Origin: Squalus acanthias
Lineage: Eukaryota
DNA: 64,000 nt
Direction of reading: 5' to 3'
NCBI GenBank assembly: GCA_030390025.1
Contig: CM059432.1
Location: 32,242,001 to 32,306,000, forward strand
Below the pieces are notes generated by a model. It ran no database searches. It saw nothing but the letters and a program-made list of their open reading frames with translations, and was not told the origin of the DNA. Both the position numbers and the translations under genes were made by a program. Of this stretch, positions 437 to 61,585 are shown one piece after another. The stretch's first letter is position 1. The number at the start of each line of letters is the position of its first letter.

Positions 437-842
437 AGTGTCATAGCAAGTTACTGGATTAGCAATCTAGTAGGCCTTGACTAGTAATCCAGGTAATGTG
501 AGTTCAAATCCCACCATAGCAATTGAGAACTTGAATTTGTTTATAAAAAAATCAGGAAATAAAAATCTGGTATCAATAAATGTGACCATTAAGCTGTTGG
601 ATTGTCGTAAAAGTCCAACTGGTTCACTAATGTCCTTTAAGGAAGGAAACCTGCCTTGCTTATTCAGTCTGACCTATATGTGATTCCAGTCTCACACAAA
701 TGTGATTGACTCTTAACTGTCCTCTGCAGTGGCCTAACAAGCCACTCAGCTGTATCAAACTGCTACAATCAGGGCAACTAGGGATGGGCAATAAATGTCG
801 GCCTTGCCAGCTCATGCCCACATCATGAGAATTTATAAAGAA
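437..842 (+). mobile_element. Bipartite tRNA-headed SINE (5' head plus 3' tail of the Zenon-like LINE)
   Basis: B-box-like GAGTTCAAATCCC near 500. The body matches the 5' region of the LINE at 36110-37590, and the 3' end GGGCAACTAGGGATGGGCAATAAATG...GCCCACATC matches that LINE's tail. Confidence 0.8.
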
Positions 843-1141
843 AAAGTCCCTGTTTGGGAAAAATTTAGCAAACATCATCGGTGCAAAGGCTACCTGTTTC
901 CATAATCTTCCATGTGCATTTCCAGGCACAGACAGGAAACGTAGAGGGAATGGGGTCAAGGAGTCACAGTGACAATAGAAGGGAAATGTTTGAGTTGGTA
1001 GAGAACATCTGATTATAATCTAACTCCACAGCAAGGGAGGGCAAGTCTACGGATGCTCATTTTTGAGTGTTGTTTTTCACTGAGGTAATTCAGACAGCTG
1101 AATGGGGAACCTTGAGTAAAAAAATGATACCTGATATGGCG

Positions 1142-1549: not shown

Positions 1550-2290
1550 TTCCTCAGTATCAGCCCCTGTACTACAGCACACTCTAGGTAAAGAAAAACT
1601 ATTCACTCCCATCTCTTACCATGTTTGTCTCAGTGTCAGCTCCCGTACATGTACAGTGCACACTGGGTAAAAGGGACCAATTCACCTTCGTCTGGTACTG
1701 TACAGCTTGTGTTTCTCAGTTTCAGCTCCTGTACATATACAGTACACAGCGGATAAAAGGGAACGATTCACTCCCGTCTGGTACTGTACATTTTGTGTGT
1801 GTTTCAGTGTCAGCCCCTGTACTTGTACAGTCTTCTTCTCTTCTTAGGCAGTCCCTCGGAACCGAGGATGACTTGCTTCCACGTTAAAAATGAGTTCGCA
1901 GGTGACTGATGAGTCCAATGCAGGACCTACAGTCTCTGTCACAGGTGGGGCAGACGGTGGTTGAAGGGGCAGGTGGGTGGGGTGCTTGGGTTGACTTGCG
2001 CTGCCTGCGCTTAGCTTCCGCTTGCTCCCGGCGAAGCGACTCGAGGTATTCGGTGCCTTCCCGGATGCTTCTCCTCCACTTTGTGCGGTCTTGGGCCAGG
2101 GATTCCCAGGTGTCGGTGGGGATGTTACACTTTTTCAAGGAGGCTTTGGCATGTGAAGTACACATCAAGTAAAAGAGAATGATTCATTCCTGTCTGCTAC
2201 TATACTGCTTGTGTCTTTCTCAGTGTACAGGACACACGGGGTAAAAGGGAACAATTCACTCCTATCTGGTACTGTACAGCTTGTGAAAAA
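1550..2290. repeat. Degenerate ~80-bp tandem repeat interrupted by an RTE insertion
   Basis: Recurring TCAGTGTCAGCCCCTGTAC...ACAC..GGTAAAAGGGAAC..TTCACTCC..TCTGGTACTGTACA units on both sides of the RTE fragment. Confidence 0.75.
1830..2147 (-). mobile_element. RTE-clade LINE 3' fragment
   Basis: ORF 1884-2168 encodes WESLAQDRTKWRRSI...CPTCDRDCRSCIGLISHLRTH (C-terminal zinc finger). (GAA)n-type tail. Matches the RTE at 28930-32953. Confidence 0.85.
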
Positions 2291-2751
2291 CCTGACAGGG
2301 GTCCGGCTACTATTTGCTTTATGACGGTGCCTGCTGGAAAGTGTACATTTGCCGGGTAAGGGCAGGACCGGGCATGGCTGCAATACCCCCCAATTGATTA
2401 TAGTATTTACGACTGTGCAACAATGCCCCATAATGAATCAGTGGTTTCAGCACATGAGGACAGCAAATTAGAGGGGAGCAAGAAAAATGTCAAAAGGATT
2501 CATTGTTTTAAAAGGTAAATATGTTGTATTAACAGGGTCAAGGTGTAGCAGCAAGGATGATGGGTTATGAAGAGGGAATTACAGAGCTGGTCTTAATTTC
2601 ACTGGTGAAAAGAAGGTTGAGGGGACAATATCCAGGTTCCTCTGGAGATAAGTCCCTCCAATTTTTTGATGGATGATGGAATTAATTTCATTTATGTAGC
2701 ACCTTTCACATCCTTGAAACTTCTCAAAGCACTTTACAACCAGGGATTTTT

Positions 2752-4570
2752 TTTATAATTCATTCTTGGGATGTGGATGTTGCTAGCAAGGCTGACATTC
2801 ATTGCCCATTCCTAGTTTCCCTTGAGAGAATGGTGGTGGGCCGCCTTCTTTAACTGCTGCAGTCCATGTGGTGAAGGTGCTCCCACAATTCTGCTAGGTA
2901 GGGAGTTAGTTCCAGGATTTTGACCCAGTGACAATGAAGGAACAGCGATATATGTCCAAGTCAGATTGATATGTGACTATGTGGGGAACTTGGAGGTGAT
3001 GGTGTTCCCATGCACCTGGTGCTCTTGTCCTTCTAGGTGGTGGAGGTTACAGGTTTGGGAAGAAGCCTTGGTGATTTGCTGCAGTGCATCCTGTGGATAG
3101 TACACACTGTAGCCATAGTGCGCTAGTGGTGAAGGGGGTGGATGTTTTTAGGAAGTGATGAAGCAGATTGCTTTGTCTTGAATGGTGTTGAGCTTCTTCA
3201 GTGTTGTTGCAGCTACACCCATCCAGGCAAGTGGAGCGTATTCCACCACAATCCTGACTTTCGCCTCATAGGTGGTGGAGAGGCTTTGGGGAGTCAGGAG
3301 GTGAGCCACTTGCCACAGAATACCCAGGCTGGCCTCTGACCTGCTCTAGTAGCCTTAGCATTTATGTGGCTGATCCAGTTGAGTTTCTGGTCAATGGCGA
3401 CCCCCAGGATGTTGATGGTGGGAGATTTGGCAATGGTAATGCCATTAAATGCCATGGGGAAATGGTTATGCTCTCTTTTGTTGGAGATAGTCCTTGCCTG
3501 GCACTTGTGTGGCACAAATGGTACTAGCCTATCAGCCCACCTGCATGTTGTCCAGATGGACTGCTTAATTATCTGAGGAATTGTGAATAGAACAGACAAT
3601 CATAAGCAAACAACCCCATTTCTGACCTTATGATGGAGCGAAGGTCATTGATGAAGCAGCTGAAGATAGTTGGGCCCAGGATGCTGCCTTGAGGAACTCC
3701 TGCAGCGATCTCTTGGGGCTGAGATGATTGGTCTCCAATGACCACAACCATCTTCCTTTGTGCCAGGTATGACTCCAGCCACTGGAGAGTTGTCTCCCTG
3801 ATCCTCAATGACTTCAGTTTTACTAGGGCTTCCTGGTGTCACACTCGGTCGAATGCTGCCTTGATGTCAAGGGCAGCCCCTTTCATTTCACCTCTGGAAT
3901 TCAGGTCTTGTGTCCATGTTTGGACCAAGGCTGCAATGAGGACTAGAGCCCAGTGGTCCTGGTGGAACGCAAACTGAGCATCGGTGAGCAGGTTATTAGT
4001 GAGTAAGTATCGCTTAATAGTACTGTTGACGATTCCTTCTATCACTTTGCTGATGATTGGGAGTAGGCTAATGAGGTGGTAATTTGCAGGATTGGGTTTG
4101 TCCAGCTTTTTGCAGACAGGACATACCTGAGCAATTTTCCACATTGTTGGATAGATGCCACTGTTGTAGCTGTACTGGAATAGTTCAGCTAAAGGTGCAG
4201 CTAGTTCTGGAGCACAGGTCTTCAGGATTACAGCCAGGATGTTGTTTGGGCCTGTAGCCCTTGCTGTGTCCAGGTCACTCAGCCACTCAGCAAGGCCAGC
4301 AATAAATGCTGGCCTTGCCAGCAATGCCCACATCCCAGGAACGAATAATTAAAAAACAATTCTTGATGTCATGAGGAGTGAGTTGAATTGGCTGAAGACT
4401 GGCATCTATGATGGTGGGGACCTTAGGAAGAGGCTAAGAAGGATCATCCACTCGGACTTCTGGTTGAAGATGGTTGCAAATGCTTCACCCTTTAATTTAA
4501 CTCTTGTGCTGGACTTTGCCATCATTGAGGATGGGAATGTTTGTGGAACCCCCTCCTCTAATTAGTTACT
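2752..4570 (-). mobile_element. Degraded, 5'-truncated CR1/Zenon-like LINE
   Basis: RT fragments (GVPQGSILGPTIFSCFINDL, ALDIKAAFDRV, PELAAPLAELF) are colinear with the element at 33135-36000, with the same 3' tail. Confidence 0.9.
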
Positions 4571-4627
4571 TAATTGCACTGTTCAGGACTGGATGTGGCA
4601 GTTTCTGGAGTCACTGTTGAAGACTCC

Positions 4628-27010: not shown

Positions 27011-29285
27011 TGAAATTTGGGAGATATTTTTGAAATTATTTTTCCCACAAAAGATGTTATGTAAGAAGGAATTTGCATTTCATAGAATCATAGAATGGTT
27101 ACAGCACAGAAGGAGGCCATTCGGCCCATCGAGCCCGTACCAGCTCTCTGCAAGAGCACTTCAGCGAGTCCCACTCCCCCGCCCTTTCCCCGTAGCCCTG
27201 CAAATTTTTTCCTTCAGGTATTTGTCCAATTCCCTTTTGAAAGCCACAATTGAGTCTGCCTCCACCACCCTTTCAGGCAGTGCATTCCAGATCATAACTA
27301 CTTGCTGCGTAAAAATGTTTTTCCTCATGTCACCTTTGGTTCTTCTGCCAGTCACCTTAAATCTGTGTCCTCTGGTTCTCGAACCTTCCGCCAATGGGAA
27401 CAGTTTCTCTCTATCTACTCTGTATAGACCCCTCATGATTTTGAACACCTCTATCAAATCTCCTCTCAACCTTCTCTGCTCTAAGGAGAACGACCCCAGC
27501 TTCTCCAGTCTATCCACGTAACTGAAATCCCTCATCCCTCAAACCATTCTTGTAAATATTTTCTGCACCCTCTCTAAGGCCTTTACATCCTTTCTAAAGT
27601 GCAGTGCCCAGAATTGGACACAATACTCCAGTTGAGGCCGAACCATTTTTTTATAAAAGTTCATCATAACTTCCTTGCTTTTGCACTATGCCTCTATTTA
27701 TGAAGCCCAGGATCCCGTATGTTTTTTTAACCGCTTTCTCAACCTGCCCTGCCACCATCAACGATTTGTGCACATATACCCCCAGGTCTCTCTGTTCGTG
27801 CACCCCCTTTAGAATTGTACCCTTCAGTTTATATTGCCTCTCCTCGTTCTTCCTACCAAAATGTATCACTTCGCACTTTTCTGCATCAAATTTCATCTGC
27901 CACATGTCCGCCCATTCCACCAGCCTGTCTATGTCTTCTTGAAGTCTATCACTACCCTCCCCACTGTTCACTGTACTTCCAAGTTTTGTGTCGCCTGCAG
28001 ATTTTGAAATTGTGCCCTGTACACCCAAGTCCAAGTCATTAATATATATCAAGAAAAGCAGTGGTCCTAGTACTAACCCTTGGGTAACACCACTGTATAC
28101 CTTCCTCCAGTCTGAAAAACAACCGTTCACCACTACTCTCTGTTTCCTGTCACTTAGCCAATTTCGTATCCATGCTGCCACAATCCCTTTTATTCCCTCG
28201 GCTTCAACTTTGCTGGGTAGCCTATTATGTGGCACTTTATCAAATGCCTTTTGGAAGTCCATGTACACCACATCAACCATATTGCCCTCATCAACCCTCT
28301 CTGTTACCTCATCAAAAAACTCAATCAAGTTAGTTAAACACGATTTGCCTTTAACAGATCCGTGCTGGCTTTCCTTAATTAATCCATACTTGTCCAAGTG
28401 ACTGTTAATTTTGTCCCGGATTATCCTTTCTAAAAGCTTCCCCACTACCGAGGTTAAACTGACTGGTCTGTAGTTAGTGGGTTTATCCTTCCACCCTTTT
28501 TTAAATAAGGGTATAGCATTTGCAATTCTCCAGTCCTCGGGCACCAGCTCCATATCCAAGGAGGATTGGAAGATTATGGCCAGTACCTCCGTAATTTACA
28601 CCTTGACTTCCCTCAACATCCTAGGATGCATCCTATCCAGTCCTGGTGACTTTATCTACTTTAAGTACTGCCAGCCTTTCTAGTACCTCCTCTTTATCAA
28701 TTTTATCCCATCCAGTATCTCAACTACCTCCTCTTTCACTATGACTTTGGCAGCATCTTCTTCCTTGGTGAAGACAGATGCAAAGTACTCATTTAGTACC
28801 TCAGCCATGCCCTCTGCCTTCATGCTTAGGTCTCCATTTTGGTCCCTAATTGGCCCCACCCCTCCTTTTACTACCCATTTACTATTTATATGCCAATAGA
28901 AGACTTTTGGATTCCCTTTTATGTGAGCTTCTTCTTCTTCTTAGGCAGTCCCTCAGAACCGAGGATGACTTGCTTCCACACTAAAAATTAGTTTTCAGGT
29001 GACTGATGAGTCCAATGCGGGACCTACAGTCTCTGTCACAGGTGGGGCAGACGGTGGTTGAAGGGGCGGGTGGGTGGGGTGCTTGGATTGAGCATAAGAA
29101 CATAAGAAATAGGAGCAGGAGTAGACCAATCGGCCCCTCGAGCCTGCTCCGCCATTCAATGAGATCATGGCTGATCTGATCCAACCTCAACTCTAAAGAA
29201 AACAAGAAGTAGGAGCAGGACCAGGCCACTCGGCCCCTGGGCCCGCTCCGCCACCCACAGGGCCTTGACTGATCCGAACTCAAAC

Positions 29286-32225
29286 TCATGTCCAATTTCC
29301 AGCCCGCTCCCCGTAACCCCTAATTCCCTTTACTTCTAGGAAACGGTCTATTTCTGTTTTAAATTTATTTAATGAAGTAGCTTCCACAGCTTCCTGCGGT
29401 AGCAAATTCCACAGACCCACTACCCTCTGAGTGAAAAAGCTTCTCCTCATCTCAGTTTTGAAAGAGCAGCCCCTTATTCTAAGATTATGTCCCCTAGTTC
29501 TAGTTTCACCCATCATTGGGAACATCCTCACCGTGTCCACCCGATCAAGCCCCTTCACAATCTTATATGTTTCAATAAGATCGCCTCTCATTCTTCTGAA
29601 CTCCAATGAGTAGAGTCCCAATCTACTCAACCTCTCCTCGTATGTCCACCCCCTCATCCCCAGAATTAACCGAGTGAACCTTCTTTGTACTGCCTCGAGA
29701 GCAAGTATGTCTTTTCTTAAGTATGGACACCAAAACTGTATGCAGTACTCCAGGTGCGGTCTCACCAATACCCTATACAACTGCAGCAATACCTCCCTGT
29801 TTTTATATTCTATCCCCCTAGCAATAAAAGCCAACATTCCATTAGCTTTCTTGATCACCTGCTGCACCTGCATACTAACTTTTTGATTTTCTTGCACCAA
29901 GACCCCCAGATCCCTTTTTACTGCAGTACTTTCCAGTTTCTCGCCATTAAGATAATAACTTGCTCTCTGATTTTTCCTGCCAAAGTGCATAACCTCACAT
30001 TTTCCAATATTGTATTGCATCTGCCAAATCTCTGCCCACTCACCCAGCCTGTCTATATCCCCTTGTAGGTTTTTTATGTCCTCCTCACTCTCTACTTTCC
30101 CTCCCATCTTTGTATCATCTGCAAACTTTGATATGTTACACTCGGTCCCCTCCTCCAAATCGTTAATATAGATTGTAAAGAGTTGGGGACCCAGCACCGA
30201 CCCCTGCGGAACACCACTGGCTACTGGTTGCCAGTCCGAGAATGAACCATTTATCCCAACTCTCTGCTTCCTGTTAGATAACCAATCCTCCACCCATGCC
30301 AGAATATTACCCCCAATCCAGTGATTTTTTATCTTGAGTAATAATCTTTTATGTGGCACCTTGTCGAATGCCTTCTGGAAGTCTAAATACACTACATCCA
30401 CTGGTTCCCCTTTATCCACCCTGTACGTTATGTCCTCAAAGAACTCGAGCAAATTTGTCAGACATGACTTCCCCTTCATAAAGCCATGCTGACTTTGTCC
30501 TATTAAATTATGTTTATCTAAATGTTCCGTTACTGTCTCCTTAATAATAGACTCCAAAATTTTACCCACCACCGATGTTAGGCTAACTGGTCTATAATTT
30601 CCAGCCTTCTGCCTACAACCCTTTTTAAATAAGGGTGTTACATTAGCAGTTTTCCAATCTGCCGGGACCTTTGCTGAGTTCAGGGAGTTTTGGAAAATTA
30701 TTACCAAAGCATCCATAATTCCTACTGCCACTTCCCTCAAGACCCTAGGATGTAAGCCATCAGGTCCAGGGGATTTATCCGCCTTGAGTCCCATTATTTT
30801 ACTGAGTACCAATTCCTTAGTGATTTTAATCGTATTTAGCTCCTCCCCCACTAGAGCCCCCTGTTTGTCCAGTGTTGGGATATTCTTAGTGTCCTCTACC
30901 GTAAAGACTGAAACAAAATATTTGTTCAGCATTTTTGCCATCTCCATGTTTCCCACCATTAATTTCCCGGTCTCATCCTCTAAGGGACCTACGTTTGCCT
31001 TAACCACCCTTTTTCTTTTTATATAACTATAGAAACTCTTGCTATCTGTTTTTATATTTTTTGCTAATTTATTTTCATAGTCTATTTTCCCTTTCTTAAT
31101 CAATCCTTTAGTTACTTTTTGTTGTCTTTTGAAGACTTCCCAATCTTCTATCCTCCCACTAACTTTGGCTACCTTATATGTCCTTGTTTTTAGTTGGATA
31201 CTTTCTTTAATTTCTTTACTTAGCCATGGATGGCTGTCATTTCTTTTACACCCTTTTTTCCTCAGTGGAATATATTTATTTTGAAAGTTGTAAAATAACT
31301 CCTTGAATGAACACCACTGCTCATGTACAGTCTTACCCTTTAATCTATTTTCCCAGTCCACTTTAATCAATTCTGCTCTCATACCATCATAGTCTCCTTT
31401 ATTCAAGCTCAGTATGCTTGTTTGAGAACCAACCTTCTCACCTTCTAATTGGATATGGAATTCAACCATGTTATGGTCACTCATTCCAAGGGGATCCTTA
31501 ACTAGGACATTATTAATTAATCCTGACTCATTACACAGGACCAGGTCCAAGGTTGCTTGCCCCCTTGTAGGATCAGTTACATACTGCTCAAGAAATCCAT
31601 CCCTAAGACACTCAATAAACTTTTCCTCAAGGCGGCCCTGCCCAATTTGATTTGTCCAGTTAATATGATAGTTAAAATCCCCCATAATTATAGCTGTTCC
31701 CTTATTACATGCCCCAACTATTTCCTGATTAATACTTCTTCCAACAGAGTTGCAACTATTAGGAGGCCTATATATTACGCCCACCAGTGTTTTTTTCTCC
31801 TTATTATTCCTTATCTCTACCCAAACTGTTTCATTATCCTGATCTTTTGACTCCATATCATTTCTCTGTATTACAGTGATTCCTTCCTTTATTAACATAG
31901 CCACCCCCCCTCCCCTTCCTTCCTGCCTGTCCTTCCTGATTGTTAAATACCCTGGCATATTTAATTCCCAGACGTTGTCACCCTGCAGCCATGTTTCTGT
32001 AATGGCCACAAGATCATACCCATACATAGTTATTTGTGCCGTTAACTCGTCCATTTTGTTACGAATGCTACGTGCATTCAGATAAAGAACTTTCAAATGT
32101 GTTTTGTGACACTTACATCCTGCTTTTTCCTTATTTAACACTTTACCTTTTACTCCATACCTTCTGTCCCTTCCTGACATGCTTTCCTCTGTCTCCCTGC
32201 TCAGGTTCCCAATCCCCTGCCACAT
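29286..32225 (-). CDS. CR1 ORF2 protein: APE endonuclease plus reverse transcriptase, 979 aa, uninterrupted
   Basis: APE motifs YLNARS, ITETWL, GGGVA, YRPP, MGDFN, SDH. RT motifs [29 protein letters not shown]. Confidence 0.95.
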   Translation of the reverse strand: MWQGIGNLSRETEESMSGRDRRYGVKGKVLNKEKAGCKCHKTHLKVLYLNARSIRNKMDELTAQITMYGYDLVAITETWLQGDNVWELNMPGYLTIRKDRQEGRGGGVAMLIKEGITVIQRNDMESKDQDNETVWVEIRNNKEKKTLVGVIYRPPNSCNSVGRSINQEIVGACNKGTAIIMGDFNYHINWTNQIGQGRLEEKFIECLRDGFLEQYVTDPTRGQATLDLVLCNESGLINNVLVKDPLGMSDHNMVEFHIQLEGEKVGSQTSILSLNKGDYDGMRAELIKVDWENRLKGKTVHEQWCSFKELFYNFQNKYIPLRKKGCKRNDSHPWLSKEIKESIQLKTRTYKVAKVSGRIEDWEVFKRQQKVTKGLIKKGKIDYENKLAKNIKTDSKSFYSYIKRKRVVKANVGPLEDETGKLMVGNMEMAKMLNKYFVSVFTVEDTKNIPTLDKQGALVGEELNTIKITKELVLSKIMGLKADKSPGPDGLHPRVLREVAVGIMDALVIIFQNSLNSAKVPADWKTANVTPLFKKGCRQKAGNYRPVSLTSVVGKILESIIKETVTEHLDKHNLIGQSQHGFMKGKSCLTNLLEFFEDITYRVDKGEPVDVVYLDFQKAFDKVPHKRLLLKIKNHWIGGNILAWVEDWLSNRKQRVGINGSFSDWQPVASGVPQGSVLGPQLFTIYINDLEEGTECNISKFADDTKMGGKVESEEDIKNLQGDIDRLGEWAEIWQMQYNIGKCEVMHFGRKNQRASYYLNGEKLESTAVKRDLGVLVQENQKVSMQVQQVIKKANGMLAFIARGIEYKNREVLLQLYRVLVRPHLEYCIQFWCPYLRKDILALEAVQRRFTRLILGMRGWTYEERLSRLGLYSLEFRRMRGDLIETYKIVKGLDRVDTVRMFPMMGETRTRGHNLRIRGCSFKTEMRRSFFTQRVVGLWNLLPQEAVEATSLNKFKTEIDRFLEVKGIRGYGERAGNWT

Positions 32226-32413
32226 TAGTTTAAATCCTCCCCAACAGCACTAGCAAACACTCCCCCTAGGACAGCGGTCCCTGGCCCTGCCCAGGTGCAG
32301 ACCGTCCGGTTTGTACTGGTCCCACCTCCCCGAGAACCGGTTCCAATGTCCCAGGAATTTGAATCCCTCTCCCTTGCACCATTCCTCTAGCCACGTATTC
32401 ATTTGAAATATCC
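32225..32413 (-). pseudogene. CR1 ORF1 C-terminal fragment (SGNH/esterase-like)
   Basis: Encodes RIFQMNTWLEEWCKGEGFKFLGHWNRF...YKPDGLHL, with the DGLH motif typical of CR1 ORF1 esterase. One apparent 1-bp insertion. Confidence 0.8.
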
Positions 32414-33198
32414 TCGTGCGCTCCTTCCGCTGTTTGTGCTTGGCTTCCACTTGCTCCCGGCGAAGAGACTCAAGGTTTCGGCGCCTTCCCGGATGCTTCT
32501 CCTCCACTTTGTGCGGTCTTGGGCCAGGGATTACCAGGTGTCCGTGGGGATGTTACACTTTTTCAAGGAGGCTTTGAGGGTGTCCTTGAAGCATTTCCTC
32601 TGCCCACCTGGGGCTCTCTTGCCGTGTCAGAGCTCCAAGTAGAACGCTTGTTTTGGGGGTCTCGTATCGGGCATGCGGACGATGTGGTCCATCCATCGGA
32701 GCTGATCGAGCGTGGTCAAGTCTTCGATGCTGGGGATGTTGGCCTGACAGAGAACACTGACGTTGGTGCGCCTATCCTGCCAATGGATTTGCAGAATCTT
32801 GCAGAGGCAGCGTTGGTGGCACCTCTCCAGTGCTTTGAGGTGCCTGCTGTACATGGTCCATGTCTCTGAAGCATACAGGAGGGCGGGTATCACTACTGCT
32901 CTGTAGACCATGAGCTTGGTGCTGGATTTGAGGTCCTGGTCTTCAAACACTCTCTGCCAATCCATTCTCATACTCTCTTTGCCCCTCTTATTTCTTTTTT
33001 CACTTCCCCTCAGAACTTTCTATATTCAGCCTGGTTCTCACTTGTATTCTTAACCTGACATCTGTCATACGCCCTCTTTTTCAGTTTCGTCTTACTCTCC
33101 ATTTCTTTCGTCATCCAGGGAGCTCTGGCTTTGGTTTTGTTTTTATTCATTTATGGGATGTGGGCGTCGCTGGCAAGGCCAGCATTTATTGCCCATCC

Positions 33199-36002
33199 CT
33201 AATTGCCCTTGAGAAGGTGGTGGTGAGCCGCCTTCTTGAACCACTGCAGTCCGTGTGGTGAAGGTACTCCCACAGTCCGGTTAGGTAGGGAGTTCCAGGA
33301 TTTTGACCCAGTGACGATGAAGGATCGGCGATATACTTCTAAGTCAGGATGGTGTGTGACTTGGAGGGTAACTTGGAGGTGGTGGTGTTCCCATGCGCCT
33401 GCTGCCCTTGATCTTCTAGGTGGAAGAGGTCGCGGGTTTGGTAGGTGCTGCCGAAGAAGCCTTGGTGAGTTGCTGCAGTGCATCTTGTAGATGGTACACA
33501 CTGCAGCCACGGTACGCCGGTAGTGGAGGGAGTGAATGTTTAAGGTGGTAGATGGGGTGCCAATCAAGCGGGCTGCTTTGTCCTGGATGGTGTTGAGCTT
33601 CTTGAGTGTTGTTGGAGCTGCACTCATCCAGGCAAGTGGAGAGTATTCCATCACACTCCTTACTTGTGCCTTGTAGATGATAGAAAGGCTTTGGGGAGTC
33701 AGGAGGTGAGACACTCGCTGCAGAATACCTAGCCTCTGACCTGCTCTTGTCGCCACAGTATTTATGTGGCTGGTCCAGTTAAGTTTCTGGTCAATGGTGA
33801 CCCCCAGGATGTTGATGGTGGGGGATTCGGCGATGGTAATGCCATTGAATGTCAAGGGGCGGTGGTTAGACTCTCGCTTGTTGGAGATAGTCATTGCCTG
33901 GCACTTCTGTGGTGCGAATGTTACCTGCCACTTATCGGCCCAAGCCTGAACGTCGTCCAGGTCTTGTTGCATGTGGGCATGGACTGCTTCATTATCTGAG
34001 GAGTTGTGAATGGCACTGAACACTGTGCAGCCATCAGCGAACATCCCCATTTCTGACCTTATGTTGGAGGGAAGGTCATTGATGAAGCAGCTGAAGATGG
34101 TTGGGCCTAGGACACTGTCCTGAGGAACTCCTGCAGCGATGTCCTGGGGCTGTGATGATTGACCTTCAATCACCACAACCATCTTCCTTTGTGCTAGGTA
34201 TGACTCCAAACAGTGGAGAATTTTCCCCCCGATTCCCATCGACTTCAGTTTTACTAGGGCTCCTTCATGCCACATTCGGTCAAATGCTGCGTTGATGTTA
34301 AGGGCAGTCACTCTTACCTCATCTCTGGAATTCAGCTCTTTTGTCCATGTTTGGACCAAGGCTGTAATGAGGTCGGGAGCCGAGTGGTCTTGGCGGAACC
34401 CAAACTGGGCATCAGTGAGTAGGTTATTGGTGAGTAAGTGTTGCTTGATAGCACTGTCAATGACACCTTCCATCACTTTGCTGATGATTGAGAGTAGACT
34501 GATGGGGCGGTAATTGGCCGGATTGGATTTGTCCTGCTTTTTGTGGACAGGACATACCTGGGCAGTTTTCCACATTGTCGGATAGATGCCAGTGTTGTAG
34601 CTGTACTGGAACAGCTTGGCTAGAGGCGCGGCTAGTTCTGGAGCACAAGTCTTCATCACGATAGCTGGGATGTTGTCAGGGCCCATAGCCTTTGCTGTAT
34701 TCAGTGCGCTGAGCCGTTTCTTGATATCACATGGAGTGAATCGATTTGGCTGAAGACTGGTTTCTGTGATGGTGGGGACATCAGGAGGAGGCCGATATGG
34801 ATCATCCACTCCGCACTTCTGGCTGAAGATGGTTGCAAACACTTCAGCCTTGTCTTTTGCACTCACGTGCTGGGCTCTGCCATCATTGAGGATGGGGATA
34901 TTCATGGAACCTGCTCCTCCCGTTAGTTGTTTAATGCTCCACTACCATTCACGACTGGATGTGGCAGGACTGCAGAGCTTTGATCTGATCCGTTGATTGT
35001 GGGATCGCTTAGCCCTGTCTATAGCATGCTGCTTCTGCTTTTTAGCATGCATGTAGTCCTGTGTTGCAGTTTCCCCAGGTTGGCATCTCATTTTTAGGTA
35101 CATCTGGTGCTGCTCCTGGCATGCTCTTCTACTCTCCTCATTGAACCAGGGTTGGTCCCCTGGCTTGATGGTAATGGTAGAGTGAGGGATATGCTGGGCC
35201 ATGAGGTTACAGATTGTGCTGGAATACAATTCTGCTGCTGCTGATGGCCCACAGCGCCTCATGGATGCCCAGTTTTGACCTGCTAGATCTGTTCTGAATC
35301 TATCCCATTAAGCACGGTGGTAGTGCCACACAACACGATGGAGGGTGTCCTCAGTGTGAAGACGGGACTTCGTCTCCACAATGACTTTGCGGTGGTCACT
35401 GCTACCAATACTGTCATGGACAGATGCATTTGCAACAGGTAGATTGGTGAGGACGAGGTCAAGTAGGTTTTTCCCTCATGTTGGTTCTCTCACCACCTGT
35501 CTCAGGCCCAGACTGACACCTATGACCTTCAGGACTCGGCCAGCTTGGTCAGTAGTGGTGCTATCGTGCCACTCTTGATGATGGACATTAAAGTCCCCCA
35601 CCCAGAGGACATTCTGTGCCCTTGCTACTCTCAGTGCTTCTTCCAAGTGGTGTTCAACATGGCGGAGTACTGATTCATCAGCTGAGGGAGGGCGGTAGGT
35701 GGTAATCAGCTGGAGGTTTCCTTGCCCATGCTTGACCTGAAGCCATGAGACTTCATGGGGTCCGGAGTCAATGTTGAGAAATCCCAGGGCCACTCCTTCC
35801 CGACTGTATACCACTGTGCCGCCACCCCTGGTGGGTCTGTCCTGACGGTGGGACAGGACATACCCAGGGGTGGTGATGGAGGAGTTTTGGACATTGGCTG
35901 AAAGGTATGATTCTGTGAGTATGACTATGTCAGGCTGTTGCTTGACTCGTCTGTGGGACAGCTCTCCCAATTTTGGCACAAGCCCCCAGATGTTGGTGAG
36001 GA
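33199..36002 (-). pseudogene. APE-RT ORF of the tRNA-headed LINE, one frame with three nonsense codons
   Basis: ORFs 35476-35979, 34942-35262 and 33199-34905 share one frame. Motifs TNIWGL, ILTESYL, RGGGT, YRPP, VGDFN, YRPISLL, GVPQDSVLGP, FADG. Confidence 0.9.
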
Positions 36003-36269
36003 GGGCTTTGCAGGGTCGACTGGGTTAGGTGTGCCGTTGCCGTGTCCATAACTAGTGCTAAGGTTGATGCTGGGTGGTCCATCCGGTTTCATTTTTATTA
36101 TTTTGTTTTGTAGCGGTTTGTTACAACTGAGTGGCTTGCTTAGCCATTTCAGGGGGCAGTTAAGAGTCAAGAGTCACATATAGGCCAGACCAGGTAAGGA
36201 CAGCAGATTTCCTTCCCTAAAGGACATTAGTGAACCAGATGGGTTTTTACGACAATCTGATAGTTTCAT

Positions 36270-37430
36270 AAGAACATAACATAAGAAATAGGAGCAGGAG
36301 TAGGCCATTCGGCCCTTCGAGCCTGCTCCACCATTTAATGATATCATGGCTGATCTTCTGCCTCAATTCCATTCACCGGCCTTATCGCCATATCCCTTAC
36401 TAGTCGGAAATCTATCGACTTCTTTTTGAATATACCCAATGACTGAGCCTCCACAGCCCTCTGGGGTAGAGAATTCTGAAGATTCACCACCATCTGTGTG
36501 AAGAAATTTCTTCTCATCTCAGTCCTGAATGGCCTACCCTTTATCCTGAGGCTGTGGCCCCTGGTTCTAGACTCCCCAGCCAAGGGAAACATTCTCCCAG
36601 CATCCACCCTATCAAGCCCTGTAATAATTTTGTATGCTTCAATGAGATCCCCTCTCATTCTTCTGAATTCAAGAGAATACAGGCCTAGTTTATTCAATCT
36701 CTTCTCATACGACAGTCCCGCCATCCCAGGAATCAATCTCGTGAACCTTCGTTGCACTCCCTCTATGGCAAGTATATCCTTCCTTAGGTAAGGAGACCAA
36801 AATTGTACACAGTACTCCAGGTGTGGTCTCACCAAGGCCCTATATAATTGGAGTAAGACTTCTTTACTCCTCTTGTAATGAAGGCTGGCATACCATTTGC
36901 CTCCCTAATGGCTTGCTGCACTTGCACATTCACTTTCAGTGACTCATGTACAAGGACACCCAGGTCCCTTTGAGCATCTGCATTCCCCAATCTTTCACCA
37001 TTTAGGAAATACTCTGCCTTTCTGTTTTTTCTACCAAAGTGGATAACTTCACATTTATCCACATTATAATCCATCTGCCATGTTCTCGCCCACTCACTGA
37101 GCCTGTCGAGATCCCTTTGAAGCCTCTTCACAACTGACACTGACACCTAGCTTTGTGTCATCAGCAAATTTGGAAATGTTACATTTAGTCCCCTCATCCA
37201 AATCATTGATATAGATTGTGAATAGCTGGGACCCAAGCACCGATCCTTGCGGTACCCCACTAGTCACAGCCTGCCATCCTGAAAAAGACCCGTTTATCCC
37301 TACTCTCTGTTTTCTGTCTGTTAACCAATTCTCAATCCATGCTAGTAGATTATCCCCAATTCCACGTGCTCTAATTTTGTTCACCAACCTCTTGTGTGGG
37401 ACCTTATCGAAGGCCTTCTGAAAATCCATG
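36270..37430 (-). mobile_element. 5'-truncated CR1 inserted in the LINE head
   Basis: Encodes DFQKAFD...FADD...RRMRGDLIEAYK. TSD GTTTCAT at 36263-36269 and 37431-37437. Confidence 0.92.
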
Positions 37431-37692
37431 GTTTCATGGTTACCATTACTGATACTAGCTTTTTATTCCAGATTTATTTAATTAACTGAATTTAAATTCC
37501 CCAGCTGCCATGGTGGAATTTGAACTCACATCTCTGGATCATTAGTCCAGGCTTCTGGATTACTAGCCCAGTGACATTACCACTACACTAAACCTTATGA
37601 TACTGTGATCACTGTTCCCTAAATGTTTTCCTACTGACACTTGCTCCACCTGACCCACCTCATTCCCCAGAATCAGATCCAGCAATGCCTCA

Positions 37693-37970
37693 TTTATATA
37701 AAGCACTTTTCACATTCTCAGCATGTCTCAAAGCAATTCACAGCCAATGAATTAATTTTGAAATGTAGTCACTGTTGTTATGTAGGCAAACACAGCAACC
37801 AATTTGTATATAACAAATCCCATGGAGAGCAAATGAGATAAATTACCAGACAATGTATTTTTATTACTGTTGGTTGAGGATAAATGTTGTCCAAGACGTC
37901 CACCGATGAGGGAAGATCGGGCCTCGGTTTAATATCTCATCCAAAAGATATCTCTGACCTCTGACAGTAC
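37693..37970 (-). mobile_element. Deu-domain SINE fragment
   Basis: Reverse tail and core. Confidence 0.7.
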
Positions 37971-45719: not shown

Positions 45720-46075
45720 CAGTGTGTACCATCTACAAGATGCACTGCAGCAACTCACCAAGGCTTCTTCGGCAGCACCTCCCAAACCCACGACCTCTTC
45801 CACCTAGAAGGACAAGGGCAGCAGGCGCATGGGAACACCACCACCTCCAAGTTCCCCTCCAAGTCACACACCATCTTGACTTAGAAATATATCGCCGTTC
45901 CTTCAGCATCGCTGGGTCAAAATCCTGGAACTCCCTCCCTAACAGCACTGTGGGAGTACCCTCACCACACGGACTGCAGCGGTTCAAGAAGGCGGCTCAC
46001 CACCACCTTCTCAAGGGCAACTAGGGAGGGGCAATAAATGCTGGCCTTGCCATCGACGCCCAGATCCCATAATCG
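45720..46075 (+). mobile_element. Zenon-like LINE 3' fragment
   Basis: Encodes CTIYKMHCSNSPRLLRQHLP...AAHHHLLKGN*, with the shared tail. Confidence 0.9.
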
Positions 46076-46084
46076 AATTTTAAA

Positions 46085-46700
46085 AAAAGAGGGCTGGAAT
46101 ACAATGGGGAGCAAGTTATGCTTCAGTTGTATAGCGCCTTGGTCAGGCCCTACCTGGAGTACTGCGTTCAGTTCTGGGCACCGCATCTCAAGAAGGATAT
46201 ATTGGCCTTGGAAGGGGGTGCAGCGCAGATTCACCAGAATGATACCAGGCCTAAAAAGGTTAAATTATGATGAAAGGTTGCATAAACTTGACTTCCTTTC
46301 CCTTGAGCTTAGAAGATTGAGGGGTGATCTGATCAAAGTGTTTCAAATGGTAAAAGAATTCGAATAGAGTAGATATGGGGAAGTTATTTCCTTTGGTGGG
46401 GGAATCCAGAACAAAGTGGCATAATCTTAAAATTAGAGCCAAGCAATTCAGGAGTGAAATTGGGAAGCACTTTTTCACGCAAAGGCTGGTGGAAATCTGG
46501 AATTCTCTCTCCCAAAAGGCTGTGGATGCTGGGTCAATTGAAATGTTCAAGACTGACATCAATTGATTTTTGTTGGGTCAGGGCATCAAGGGATATGGAT
46601 CAAAGGTGGGTAAATAGAGTTGAAGAACAGATCAGCCATGATCCAATTGAATGGTGGAACAGGCTCGAGGGGCTGAATGATCTACTCCTGTTCCTATGGT
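46085..46700 (+). mobile_element. CR1 3' fragment
   Basis: Encodes [28 protein letters not shown]1 3' hairpin present. Confidence 0.9.
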
Positions 46701-51409: not shown

Positions 51410-52130
51410 TGGGTACAGTAGCATTGTGGTTATTTTCCTGGACTAATAATTCAACGAATGTGAATTCAAATCCCACCATGGCAGTTTGAGAATTTGAATT
51501 TAGCTTTTTTAAAAGCTGGCATCAGCTGGTTTCATACATGCATTTAAGGAGAAGTTAGATAAGTACATGAGGGAGAAAGGAATAGAGGATATGCTGATAT
51601 GGGTGAGATGAAGTAAATAGTGGGAGATGGCTCGTGTGGAGCATAAACACCAGTATAGACCAGTTGGGCTGAATAGCCTGTTTCTGTGCTGTATATTCTA
51701 CGTAATTCTATGTGAAAGTGACCATGAAGCTGTTGCATTGTCGTAAAATCCAACTAATCTCCTTTAGGGAAGGAAACCTGCCGTCCTTGCCGGTCTGCCC
51801 TATATGTTTCCCACAGTCCAAAGATGTGCGGGTTAGGTTGATTTGGCTATAATAAATTGACCCTTAGTGTTAGGGGGATTAAATACGTGGGGTTACGGGG
51901 ATAGGGTGGGATATGTGTCGGTGCAGGCTCGATGGGCCGAAATGGCCTCTATCTGCACTGTGGGGATTCTGTGATTCTGTGATTCTGTGATGTGACTCCA
52001 GTCCCGAAGCATTGTGGTTGACTCTTAACTGCCCTCTGAAGGGACCAAGCAAGCCACTTAATTGTACAAGGGCAATTGGGGATGGCAATAATTGCCAGCC
52101 TTGTCAGCAATGCCCACATCCTGAATACAA
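51410..52130 (+). mobile_element. Bipartite Zenon-derived SINE with nested CR1 tail (~51540-51712) and HE1-like SINE
   Basis: GGGTACAGTAGCATTGTGG head. The body resumes after each insertion. LINE-type tail. Confidence 0.75.
51808..51990 (+). mobile_element. HE1-like V-SINE, 5'-truncated
   Basis: CCCACAGTCCAAAGATGTGCGGGTTAGGTTGAT...TAAATTG (V-domain) plus a CR1-type GGGCCGAAATGGCC hairpin and (GATTCTGT)n tail. Confidence 0.75.
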
Positions 52131-56450: not shown

Positions 56451-56871
56451 ATTAACATATCAAAATATTGGACAGGTAAAGACCGGCTGGTCCATCGAGC
56501 ATGTCCCAAACAGTCATGATACACCAAAGCATCGTGACTCCCATGGTTCCCTCCCACTGGTCGTCATGTAATTTCTGGGGAGAGGCAAAAAAAAAAATTT
56601 AAAAACACCATTGGCCAATTCAGGGGGAAAATTCTGGGGGATTCCTCTCTAAGACGATCAAGAACCAGTTCCTGGAGATCACAGTGACTATGATCTATAA
56701 ACCAAGTCCCACCTACCTTCTGTGCATAATAATATTATCCTGTTGCGCCATGGGGGGTAAAACTCCCTTCGCTGAGAGTGTACAGAGTTTCCTCTTATTG
56801 AACTGCTCGTTACAAATAACCTCATTTCACTGTTAAAAAAAATACAAATTCATATCTGAAGATACTGCCAA

Positions 56872-57886
56872 TTATCACAGCCCCAGGATATCGCTGCAGG
56901 AGTTCCTCAGGGCAGTGTCCTAGGCCCAACCATCTTCAGCTGCTTCATCAATGACTTTCCCTAAGGTCAGAAATGGGGATGTTCGCTGATGACTGCACAG
57001 TGTTCAGTGCCATTCACAACTCCTCAGATAATGAAACAGTCCATACCCGCATGCAACAAGACCTGGACGACATTCAGGCTTGGGCTGATAAGTGGCAGGT
57101 ACATTCACACCACACAAGTGCCAGGCAATGACTATCTCCAACAAGCGAGAGTCTAAGCATCGCCTCTTGACATTCAACGGCATTACCATCGCCGAATCCC
57201 CCACCAACAACATCTTGGGGGATACCATTGACCAGAAACTTAACTGGACTAGCCACATAAATACTGTGGCAACAAGAGCAGGTCAGAGGCTAGGTATTCT
57301 GCGGCGAGTGTCTCACCTCCTGACTCCCCAAAGCCTTTCCACTATCTACAAGGCACAAGTCAGGAGTGTGATGGAATACTCTCCACTTGCCTGGATGAGT
57401 GCAGCTCCAACAACACTCAAGAAGCTCAACACCATCCAGGACAAAGCAACCCGCTTGATTGGCATCCCATCCACCACCTTAAACATTCACTCCCTCCACC
57501 ACCGGTGTACTGTGGCTGCAGTGTGTACCATCTACAAGATGCACTGCAGCAACTCGCCAAGACTTCTTCGGCAGCACCTCCCAAACCCGCGACCTCTTCC
57601 ACCTAGAATGACAAGGGCAGCAGGCGCATGGGAACACCAGCAGCTCCAAGTTCCCCTCCAAGTCACACACCATCCTGACTTAGAAGTATATCGCCAGTCC
57701 TTCATCGTCGCTGGGTCAAAATCCTGGAACTCCCTCCCTAATAGCACTGTGGGAGTACCATCACCACACAGACTGCAGCGGTTCAAGGCAGCAGCTCACC
57801 ACCACCTTCTCAAGGACAATTAGGGATGGGTAATAAATGCTGGCCTTGCCAGCGACGCCCACATCCCATAAACAAATTAAAAAAAA
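56872..57886 (+). mobile_element. Zenon-like LINE, 5'-truncated
   Basis: [10 protein letters not shown] and FADD. ORF 57092-57823 is highly similar to the C-terminal part of 33199-34905. A-rich tail. Confidence 0.95.
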
Positions 57887-61074: not shown

Positions 61075-61585
61075 TGAATTCCTCAGGATTTGGGCATCAT
61101 TGGCAAGGCTGCATTTATTACCCATCCCTAGTTGCCCAAATTTGATACAACTGGGTGGCTTGCTAGGCCACTTCAGAGGGCAGTTAAAAAGAAAGACTTG
61201 CATTTATATATAGCGCCTTTCATGACCACTGGATGTCTCAAAGCGCTTTACAGCCAATTAAGTACTTTTGAAGTGGAGTCACTGTTGTAATGTGGGAAAT
61301 GCGGCAGCCAATTTGCACACAACAAGGTCCCACAAACAGCAATGTGATAATGACCAGATAATCTGTTTTTGTTATGTTGGTTGAGGGATAAATATTGACC
61401 AGGACACCGAGGATAACTCCCCTGCTCTTCTTCGAAATAGTGCCATGGGATTTTTTACGTCCACCTGAGAGAGCAGACGGGGCCTCGGTTTAACGTCTCA
61501 TCCGAAAACGGCACCTCCGACAGTGCAGCAGTTAAGAGTCAACCACATTGGTGTCAGACTGAAGCCAGACCGGGTAAGGACGGGA
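61075..61585 (-). mobile_element. Bipartite Zenon-derived SINE interrupted by a Deu-SINE (61188-61527, -)
   Basis: 8-bp TSD GCAGTTAA at 61180-61187 and 61528-61535. Confidence 0.85.

Follow-up and report, generated by a model that had tools for sequence, protein, structure and literature searches.

Long interspersed elements (LINEs) are usually seen as units of RNA polymerase II (Pol II), and short interspersed elements (SINEs) as units of RNA polymerase III (Pol III) that borrow LINE proteins. A stretch of 64,000 nucleotides (nt) of the Squalus acanthias genome (assembly GCA_030390025.1, contig CM059432.1, positions 32,242,001 to 32,306,000; called the window below, always at its full length) raises the question of whether a LINE that encodes its own proteins can also carry, and use, the promoter of a SINE. 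The element concerned spans 33135..37590 of the window, on the minus strand, and an earlier reading of the letters alone (the original prediction) had singled it out as a LINE with a tRNA-like head that would be transcribed by Pol III. Judged by the alignments made here, it is a copy of an elasmobranch LINE of the Zenon type (CR1 group), the whole 5' untranslated region (UTR) of which is the front of a tRNA-derived SINE. This front is, on the same grounds, inherited with the LINE, and consensus sequences from five elasmobranch species contain it as well. Transcription of the coding LINE by Pol III is plausible, and we put it forward tentatively.

The head and its linkage to the coding frame

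Once a nested insert is excluded, the unit in the window measures ca 3.29 kb. It consists of a tRNA-like head with A and B boxes, a leader of ca 330 nt, one long open reading frame (ORF) with an apurinic/apyrimidinic endonuclease (APE) and a reverse transcriptase (RT), and a short A-rich tail (Table 1). The insert-free sequence is colinear with other genomic copies and unbroken at the insertion point, and on either side of the insert stands a 7-nt repeat, GTTTCAT in plus-strand and ATGAAAC in minus-strand orientation. The original prediction had described a continuous element interrupted by a CR1 insert between target-site duplications, with tRNA-like boxes at its start, a single APE and RT frame without ORF1 and a tail containing AATAAA. 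All of this was found, the frame being confirmed both by Pfam matches and by a near-intact full-length copy (L061) with 962 codons and one TGA.

The window copy itself is somewhat decayed. It is short of the family start by ca 8 nt, its A box has changed from TAGCG to TAGTG, and its APE/RT frame is broken into three pieces. The first ATG lies ca 340 nt from the 5' end and homology to APE starts from ca 430 nt; an A/T-rich stretch comes right after the B box. Among the best 75 scored copies of a protein search, open frames reach up to 962 amino acids. No ORF1 was found, the only ORF upstream being a short one of about 46-55 codons. The RT is only 28% identical to the canonical CR1-like ORF in the window.

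The A box of tRNA-type promoters has the consensus TRGCNNAGTGG and the B box the consensus GGTTCGANNCC. In most other copies of the element, the A box reads TAGCGTAGTGG and the B box GAGTTCAAATCCC, and the start lies 8 nt further upstream with GGGAACGG; this motif, or a variant 1-2 bases off, directly precedes the A box in ca 18 of 22 aligned LINE heads. The A box thus begins at +9, and the B box follows ca 55-60 nt later, a tRNA-like spacing. Two subfamilies with differing neighbouring bases have either TAGCGTAGTGG or TAGCATAGTGG as A box, together with GAGTTCAAATCCC as B box, and the B box of the S. acanthias copies departs from the consensus at 1-2 places. With the Rfam model RF00005 (gathering score 29), the window head scores 15 bits (E 1.8), and three of four other copies score 22.3-22.6 bits (E 0.7-0.9), the subthreshold alignment covering the D arm, the anticodon arm, a 22-nt insertion and the T arm. 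ARAGORN found no tRNA in the window, and the head folds no better than shuffled sequences (z = −0.92). Because of these three results, we assign the head as a degenerate tRNA-derived SINE head, rather than a tRNA gene.

We now consider how the head is linked to the coding frame over the 3.7-Gb genome. A 170-nt head query gave at least 3189 first-look candidates, and in all of the 40 best, which were scored, the head matches were at least 94% identical. Nine further head-selected loci were fetched, and head, leader and APE are continuous in every one of them, in six as a single alignment to element position ca 1650-1685 and in three with internal gaps. A second query contained only the start of APE and was chosen to avoid selection on the head (4628 candidates, best 40 scored, 29 loci fetched). 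Of these 29 loci, 13 have their start at element position 1-10 and the other 16 are cut short at the 5' end, at 21-407; none of them reaches into common upstream sequence, a longer 5' UTR or an ORF1. The 3' end (position 3281-3296) is reached in 14 of the 19 longer loci; the full-length analysis as a whole is based on 19 + 3 loci plus 20 short end pieces. When the older copy at 2748-4601 of the window was used as query, only matches of 81-83% identity were obtained. Head, leader, APE and RT frame and A-tailed 3' end are one retrotransposition unit, and full-length copies have a sharply defined start, GGGAACGG, 8 nt ahead of the A box. The earlier claim that head and ORF had been inserted together is borne out by these loci, as is the expectation that full-length copies begin at the head.

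The argument originally given for a joint insertion, namely that the element sits between colinear pieces of an older CR1, turned out to be only roughly right. The flanks do belong to an older CR1-like ORF (upstream ...GNSDHSIIR, downstream KARAPWMTKE...) and are colinear by translation, but ca 74 codons are absent between the two motifs, judged by the intact CR1 of the window. A comparison of the flanks with that CR1 at the DNA level gave nothing, the colinearity being visible only after translation. The genome-wide linkage therefore takes the place of the flank argument. Insertion of the element seems to have deleted the ca 74 codons of the target; a target-site duplication is not visible at the window copy, and none is convincing at the five full-length copies examined.

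Two side observations concern the loci that were collected. L046 and L054 (contigs C3424 and C9) have the same truncation point and identical 3' flanks, and look like a segmental or assembly duplicate, not like separate insertions. The contig sets X1, X2, X8 and X10, the kind of which is a guess and which are uninformative on transcripts, starts and ends, cover all 30 bins of L061:89-1500; their depth there rises towards the 3' end and peaks over the SINE body, SINE-type joints being included.

Table 1. Features of the element and of related copies in the window.
Feature	Position	Strand	Basis or remark
tRNA-derived head	37515..37590	-	A box TAGTGTAGTGG 37590-37580, B box GAGTTCAAATTCC 37527-37515
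Leader part 1, SINE-body-like, up to the nested insertion	37431..37514	-	Alignment to other copies
Nested 5'-truncated CR1-like LINE insert, foreign to the element	36270..37430	-	1.16 kb; other copies contiguous here
Leader part 2, Deu-like conserved body and A-rich linker	36093..36269	-	Alignments, published prefixes
Short upstream ORF, ca 55 codons from the first ATG (36092)	35925..36092	-	Other frame than APE/RT; overlaps its start
APE (endonuclease) part of the long frame	35476..36024	-	Pfam Exo_endo_phos 3.8e-09, Exo_endo_phos_2 1.2e-08
Linker piece, same protein, shifted frame in the window copy	34942..35307	-	Colinear with the open frame of L061
RT domain and C-terminal region, 580 codons	33199..34941	-	Pfam RVT_1 1e-31; stop codon 33199-33201
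64-nt 3' UTR/tail with AATAAA, terminating GAATAAAAACAAAACC	33135..33198	-	Sequence
Short SINE form: head and leader (element 2-323) joined to tail (3222-3295)	437..845	+	Alignment
Older 5'-truncated copy of the LINE, 77-81% identity	2748..4601	-	Alignment
5'-truncated copy, element 2928-3296, terminating GAATTTTAAAAAAA	45720..46088	+	Alignment
5'-truncated copy, element 2270-3295	56869..57886	+	Alignment

Published Zenon families and the SINE form

The family to which the element belongs is already published as Zenon, and its head is not discussed there. This lineage of the CR1 group is reported from elasmobranchs, coelacanth and hagfish, always without ORF1 and with a poly-A tail that is stated to be unique to Zenon inside the CR1 group, and elasmobranch Zenon is said to be in no repeat database (Stuart et al. 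2026, Genome Biol Evol, PMC13343379). The elasmobranch Zenon elements have a single APE and RT ORF, no ORF1, an A tail and a length of ca 3.3 kb, all as in the element here. By eye, the first ca 400 nt of the SquAca_Zenon-1 consensus (3314 nt) are those of our copies, and in the first 131 nt there is one difference from the copy L008.

Seven elasmobranch Zenon consensus prefixes from five species, each comprising the first ca 400 nt, were inspected, and each opens with a tRNA-like head, in which the A box conforms to T[AG]GCNNAGTGG (TRGCNNAGTGG) throughout. The B box has the canonical form GGTTCGAATCC in three prefixes, GAGTTCAAATCC in the three from S. acanthias and GAGTTGAATCC in one. The stretch between the boxes varies markedly from species to species, and after the head comes a near-identical body, followed by ATGAA.... 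In sequence, the published S. acanthias family does not differ from ours. The main text of the article does not describe the tRNA-type head with its two boxes, nor the missing runs of four T, and in it the terms 'tRNA', 'Pol III' and 'polymerase III' have no occurrence (PMC13343379). Full-text searches of PMC and bioRxiv, a coverage outside which Repbase Reports and subscription journals lie, likewise yielded no account of an autonomous LINE with a tRNA-type head.

The window also contains a short form of the element that lacks the coding region, in which the head and leader are joined directly to the tail. Such junctions were found four times in ca 290 kb, at 437-845, 52018-52121 and 61086-61206 of the window and in L005. 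The part common to LINE and SINE ends at element position ca 306-323, and the tail resumes at ca 3220. Four terminal codons of the LINE frame, together with its stop, belong to the shared tail, and in the window copy the stop falls within this common stretch. The full element is itself no short, non-coding SINE, since it has 3.3 kb and encodes APE and RT. The original prediction had spoken of a captured tRNA promoter, and a tRNA-type head is indeed present, but the captured piece is the whole SINE front, that is, the head together with the conserved body.

We tentatively take this body to be akin to the Deu domain of DeuSINEs, and it is near-identical over the seven elasmobranch prefixes, as expected of a highly conserved domain. 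The tRNA-headed DeuSINEs SacSINE1 (dogfish) and LmeSINE1 (coelacanth) are listed with a 'CR1-4_DR-like' partner LINE (Ohshima 2013, PMC3747384), and SacSINE1 is described by Luchetti et al. 2017 (PMC5499810). These SINEs are presented as a tRNA-related head, a conserved central body and a tail in common with a CR1-group LINE, which is the layout of the short form here; unlike them, the full element holds a 2.9-kb coding region between body and tail. In bivalves, Deu SINEs are reported as paired with CR1-Zenon (PMC11481361). It can be added as a side observation that the vertebrate lineages given for Zenon (elasmobranchs, coelacanth, hagfish) are those given for SacSINE1, LmeSINE1 and EbuSINE1, although the coelacanth and hagfish prefixes are headless (PMC4824008, PMC13343379). 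These headless prefixes contain several runs of four or more T.

A comparison with the Repbase survey of Kojima 2018 (PMC5786205) is useful at this point. The bipartite derivatives discussed there have 5' and 3' parts in common between SINE and LINE, as is the case here. However, LINE 5' regions in SINE bodies are given only for RTE and Vingi, and the LINEs are treated as Pol II units and regarded as free of a small-RNA head, while here a LINE of the CR1 group shares its 5' part with a SINE and bears the head.

T runs, 3' ends and the polymerase

The window copy has no sense-strand run of four or more T (T4+) in 3296 nt, as had been claimed for it, while the corresponding runs number 20 for A, 11 for C and 9 for G. 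Its T runs of length 1, 2, 3 and at least 4 amount to 483, 82, 10 and 0, compared to 427, 88, 18 and 4.7 in the mononucleotide expectation (P ca 0.01 for the absence of T4+), and those of L061 to 472, 79, 7 and 0, compared to 416, 83.5, 16.8 and 4.2. Runs of A, C and G are without deficit in both copies. Over 19 copies with 56,143 aligned nt there are four T4 runs, each private to one copy, and 265 runs of A, 172 of C and 148 of G. The CR1 at 29091-32413 of the window, for which about nine TTTT runs had been counted, has exactly 9, with 8.9 expected, and three CR1-type control ORFs are at or above their shuffle values. The depletion of T runs is thus real; it concerns T alone and this family alone, and becomes stronger with increasing run length. 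The original prediction had extended the absence of TTTT to three further window copies. It holds for the one at 56869-57886 and, outside its inverted insert, for the one at 2748-4601, the sole T4+ of which is a T6 within that insert; the copy at 45720-46088 does contain a single T4, which lies at the very 3' terminus, just outside the range for which the claim was made.

The termini are different in this respect, T4+ being common at the very end and nearly absent from the preceding 3.2 kb. The 36 distinct 3' ends continue beyond ...CCCATAAACGAAT with (T)0-8(A)n, so that termini vary as GAAT(T)0-8(A)n. Thirty of the 36 have at least five consecutive A no more than 28 nt from the tail motif, with AATAAA ca 45 nt upstream. 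In nine ends, at least four T directly precede the A run (seven by the script rule, together with L060 with T9 and L055 with T6); examples are L061:3337-3349, L060:3336-3344 and window 46078-46088. AATAAA and a T run before the A tail are also the combination described for the B2, Dip and Ves SINEs, which have AATAAA, a Pol III terminator and an A tail (PMC8466645). Those SINEs are short and non-coding, however, whereas the element here is coding, and 27 of its 36 ends are without T4.

It is important to point out that the start of the long frame poses a problem of its own. Most copies have an APE/RT frame that is open from ca position 307, where a TAA lies, and lacks an ATG; in L061 the first in-frame methionine is codon 279 of 962, past the APE domain. 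The only ATG nearby opens the short ORF of 46-55 codons, which overlaps the long frame in another register (window 35925-36092; L061:423-563). This ATG is in frame with the long frame in one of 19 copies (L055), through a deletion, and by eye no canonical slippery heptamer was seen in the overlap of the two frames. Since the long frame has no ATG at its start, its translation must, as far as the reading frames tell, be unconventional irrespective of the polymerase.

Pol III transcription would be the simplest reading of the data, because the A and B boxes stand at a fixed distance from a sharp 5' end, the body is free of T4+ and T runs occur at the terminus. The head would then be the inherited internal promoter of the element, at which TFIIIC and TFIIIB would recruit Pol III, with transcription starting at the SINE start site. 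Pol III would be able to traverse the 3.2-kb body, since no T4 terminator lies within it, and would stop at the terminal T run or in the flank, after which the RT of the element would make use of its A tail and 3' stem region. The protein would be made by cap-independent or otherwise unconventional initiation, since an AUG is missing from the APE domain and from the part of the frame ahead of it. Another possibility is that occasional read-through RNAs made by Pol II encode the protein and that it works in trans, as is required for the SINE form. A more far-reaching version of this proposal is that the elasmobranch Zenon elements are autonomous coding LINEs driven by a SINE-type Pol III promoter, with a T4-free 3.3-kb RNA that runs from the tRNA-like +1 to the terminal T run or A tail and is translated without a cap, the ultra-conserved Deu-like body standing immediately ahead of the AUG-less long frame, that the tRNA-headed DeuSINEs are their internal-deletion derivatives, and that the conservation of Deu reflects a function in the LINE 5' UTR. 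Taken as a whole, we consider this version doubtful.

A number of points weigh against Pol III. To our knowledge, there are no natural Pol III transcripts of such length, and uncapped RNAs are poorly translated. The head lies under the Rfam threshold for tRNA, and the terminal T4 is absent in 27 of 36 ends. The absence of T4+ in the window copy is less striking against stricter null models, with a mean of 1.96 runs and P(0) = 0.11 in the dinucleotide shuffle and a mean of 2.31 and P = 0.06 in the synonymous-codon shuffle (1000 shuffles each). TT and TTT are already scarce (C 0.29, T 0.20; 14 TTC and 5 TTT codons for Phe), and a general compositional or codon bias therefore accounts for much of the T4 absence. 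The 19 copies share one ancestor and are hence not independent tests. The original prediction that the coding sequence had been purged of Pol III terminators thus stands only in part: the absence is real and T-specific, but there is no clear excess over the codon and dinucleotide nulls, and by itself the depletion is no proof of selection against terminators, the T-run statistics being modest. Finally, Zenon of other phyla is also described as lacking ORF1 and having a poly-A tail, and the coelacanth and hagfish consensus prefixes in Supplementary Table 2 are without the head (PMC13343379). In view of these headless elements, the missing ORF1 and the poly-A tail are independent of a Pol III head.

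These points lead to the main alternative, which is quite possible although we would not lean towards it. Here, Pol II would make the functional RNA, which would be capped and polyadenylated at AATAAA; the SINE-derived 5' UTR, with its conserved Deu-like body, would act as an internal Pol II promoter, possibly aided by TFIIIC bound at the boxes, and the T-poor strand would be a by-product of composition or codon use. The A runs and the upstream AATAAA at the 3' ends agree with this, as do the poly-A tails and the missing ORF1 of Zenon of all phyla (PMC13343379), the T4 absence being within reach of the two stricter nulls, the export and translation that a coding RNA requires, and the handling of LINEs as Pol II units by Kojima 2018 (PMC5786205). 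However, a second, unshown promoter activity is needed where a canonical Pol III promoter already sits, and it would have to use the same sharp 5' end as the SINE form. Moreover, it leaves unexplained why the A box persists in each of the seven elasmobranch prefixes, at the available prefix length, despite differing neighbours. T runs are, in addition, depleted on one strand and for one base only, with no such effect in the CR1 controls.

Besides these two readings, under the second of which the head would persist for a reason other than Pol III transcription, all others are rather unlikely even when taken together. One option considered was that the head is added repeatedly, by a template switch of the RT from LINE RNA to the abundant SINE RNA in the shared Deu-like region, which would give a seamless junction. 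LINE and SINE do have ca 310 nt of the 5' end plus the tail in common, and template switching is an accepted route of SINE module exchange in the sources consulted (PMC5786205, PMC4824008). A second head type (…GTTATGTTACTGGAC…) is found in L024, L029 and L040 and resembles the SINE head of L005. However, these three are the most diverged LINE copies, and the commonest LINE head type (…GTAATGTCACTGGGC…) is LINE-linked in 9/9 further fetched loci among the closest matches and SINE-linked in none. In addition, four SINE copies are 72-86% identical to the LINE leader, compared to about 87-94% among LINE copies (measured to the window copy). The head diverges along with the LINE subfamilies, and this co-divergence of head and body argues against repeated re-addition, which we regard as improbable.

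Another option is that the head serves as a processing signal for the 5' end, where a cut of the RNase P type would free the LINE RNA from host co-transcripts. A comparable case is the R2 ribozyme, which frees the RNA of its element from host co-transcripts. The sharp 5' end at the position of a tRNA 5' end would fit, and so would the AUG-less start of the frame, which is likewise found in elements that use uncapped processed RNAs. The head has no acceptor stem, however: Rfam aligns only model positions 7-64 in two of three matches, at a subthreshold 22.3 bits, the fold is no better than that of shuffles, and conservation resides in the A and B boxes, not in stems. This option is accordingly improbable as well. 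The last one, that the head is there by chance or by targeting, the LINE inserting into or adjoining SINE copies, could appeal to the LINE resembling a SINE with 2.9 kb put between body and tail, but it has a negligible chance of being right and was rejected, as truncated LINE copies have no SINE front upstream (L017, L025, L026 and the three truncated window copies in Table 1), each copy has a single tail, the junction is constant, and head and body co-diverge.

Neighbouring repeats and implications

Some other features of the window should be mentioned. Within the older copy at 2748-4601, a piece of the element's tail (element 3239-3296) lies in inverted orientation at ca 4299-4356 and is the source of the only T6 of that copy. 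Ca 1 kb from the element lies an uninterrupted CR1-like ORF of 987 codons with Exo_endo_phos and RVT_1 domains (29286-32249, minus strand). This copy was possibly active recently; its composition is C 0.13 and G 0.28, compared to C 0.29 in the Zenon copy. A different abundant short repeat occupies 37691-37890, starting ca 100 nt beyond the 5' flank of the element, and matches ca 18 other places in the window with 69-78% identity.

What the element means for the biology of these repeats does not depend entirely on the polymerase. In this LINE clade a SINE-type head, with the A and the B box intact, has outlasted the turnover of subfamilies, and a headed LINE clade blurs the usual division between the two kinds of element. 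If Pol III transcription is true, the element would provide a natural protein-coding Pol III transcript of unprecedented length, and with it a handle on cap-independent translation. Even under Pol II, the shared head, body and tail physically tie the tRNA-headed DeuSINEs to their Zenon partner. For the conservation of the Deu domain, three competing models are set out in the literature consulted (PMC5499810), and the tie to Zenon gives a testable origin for this deeply conserved SINE domain.

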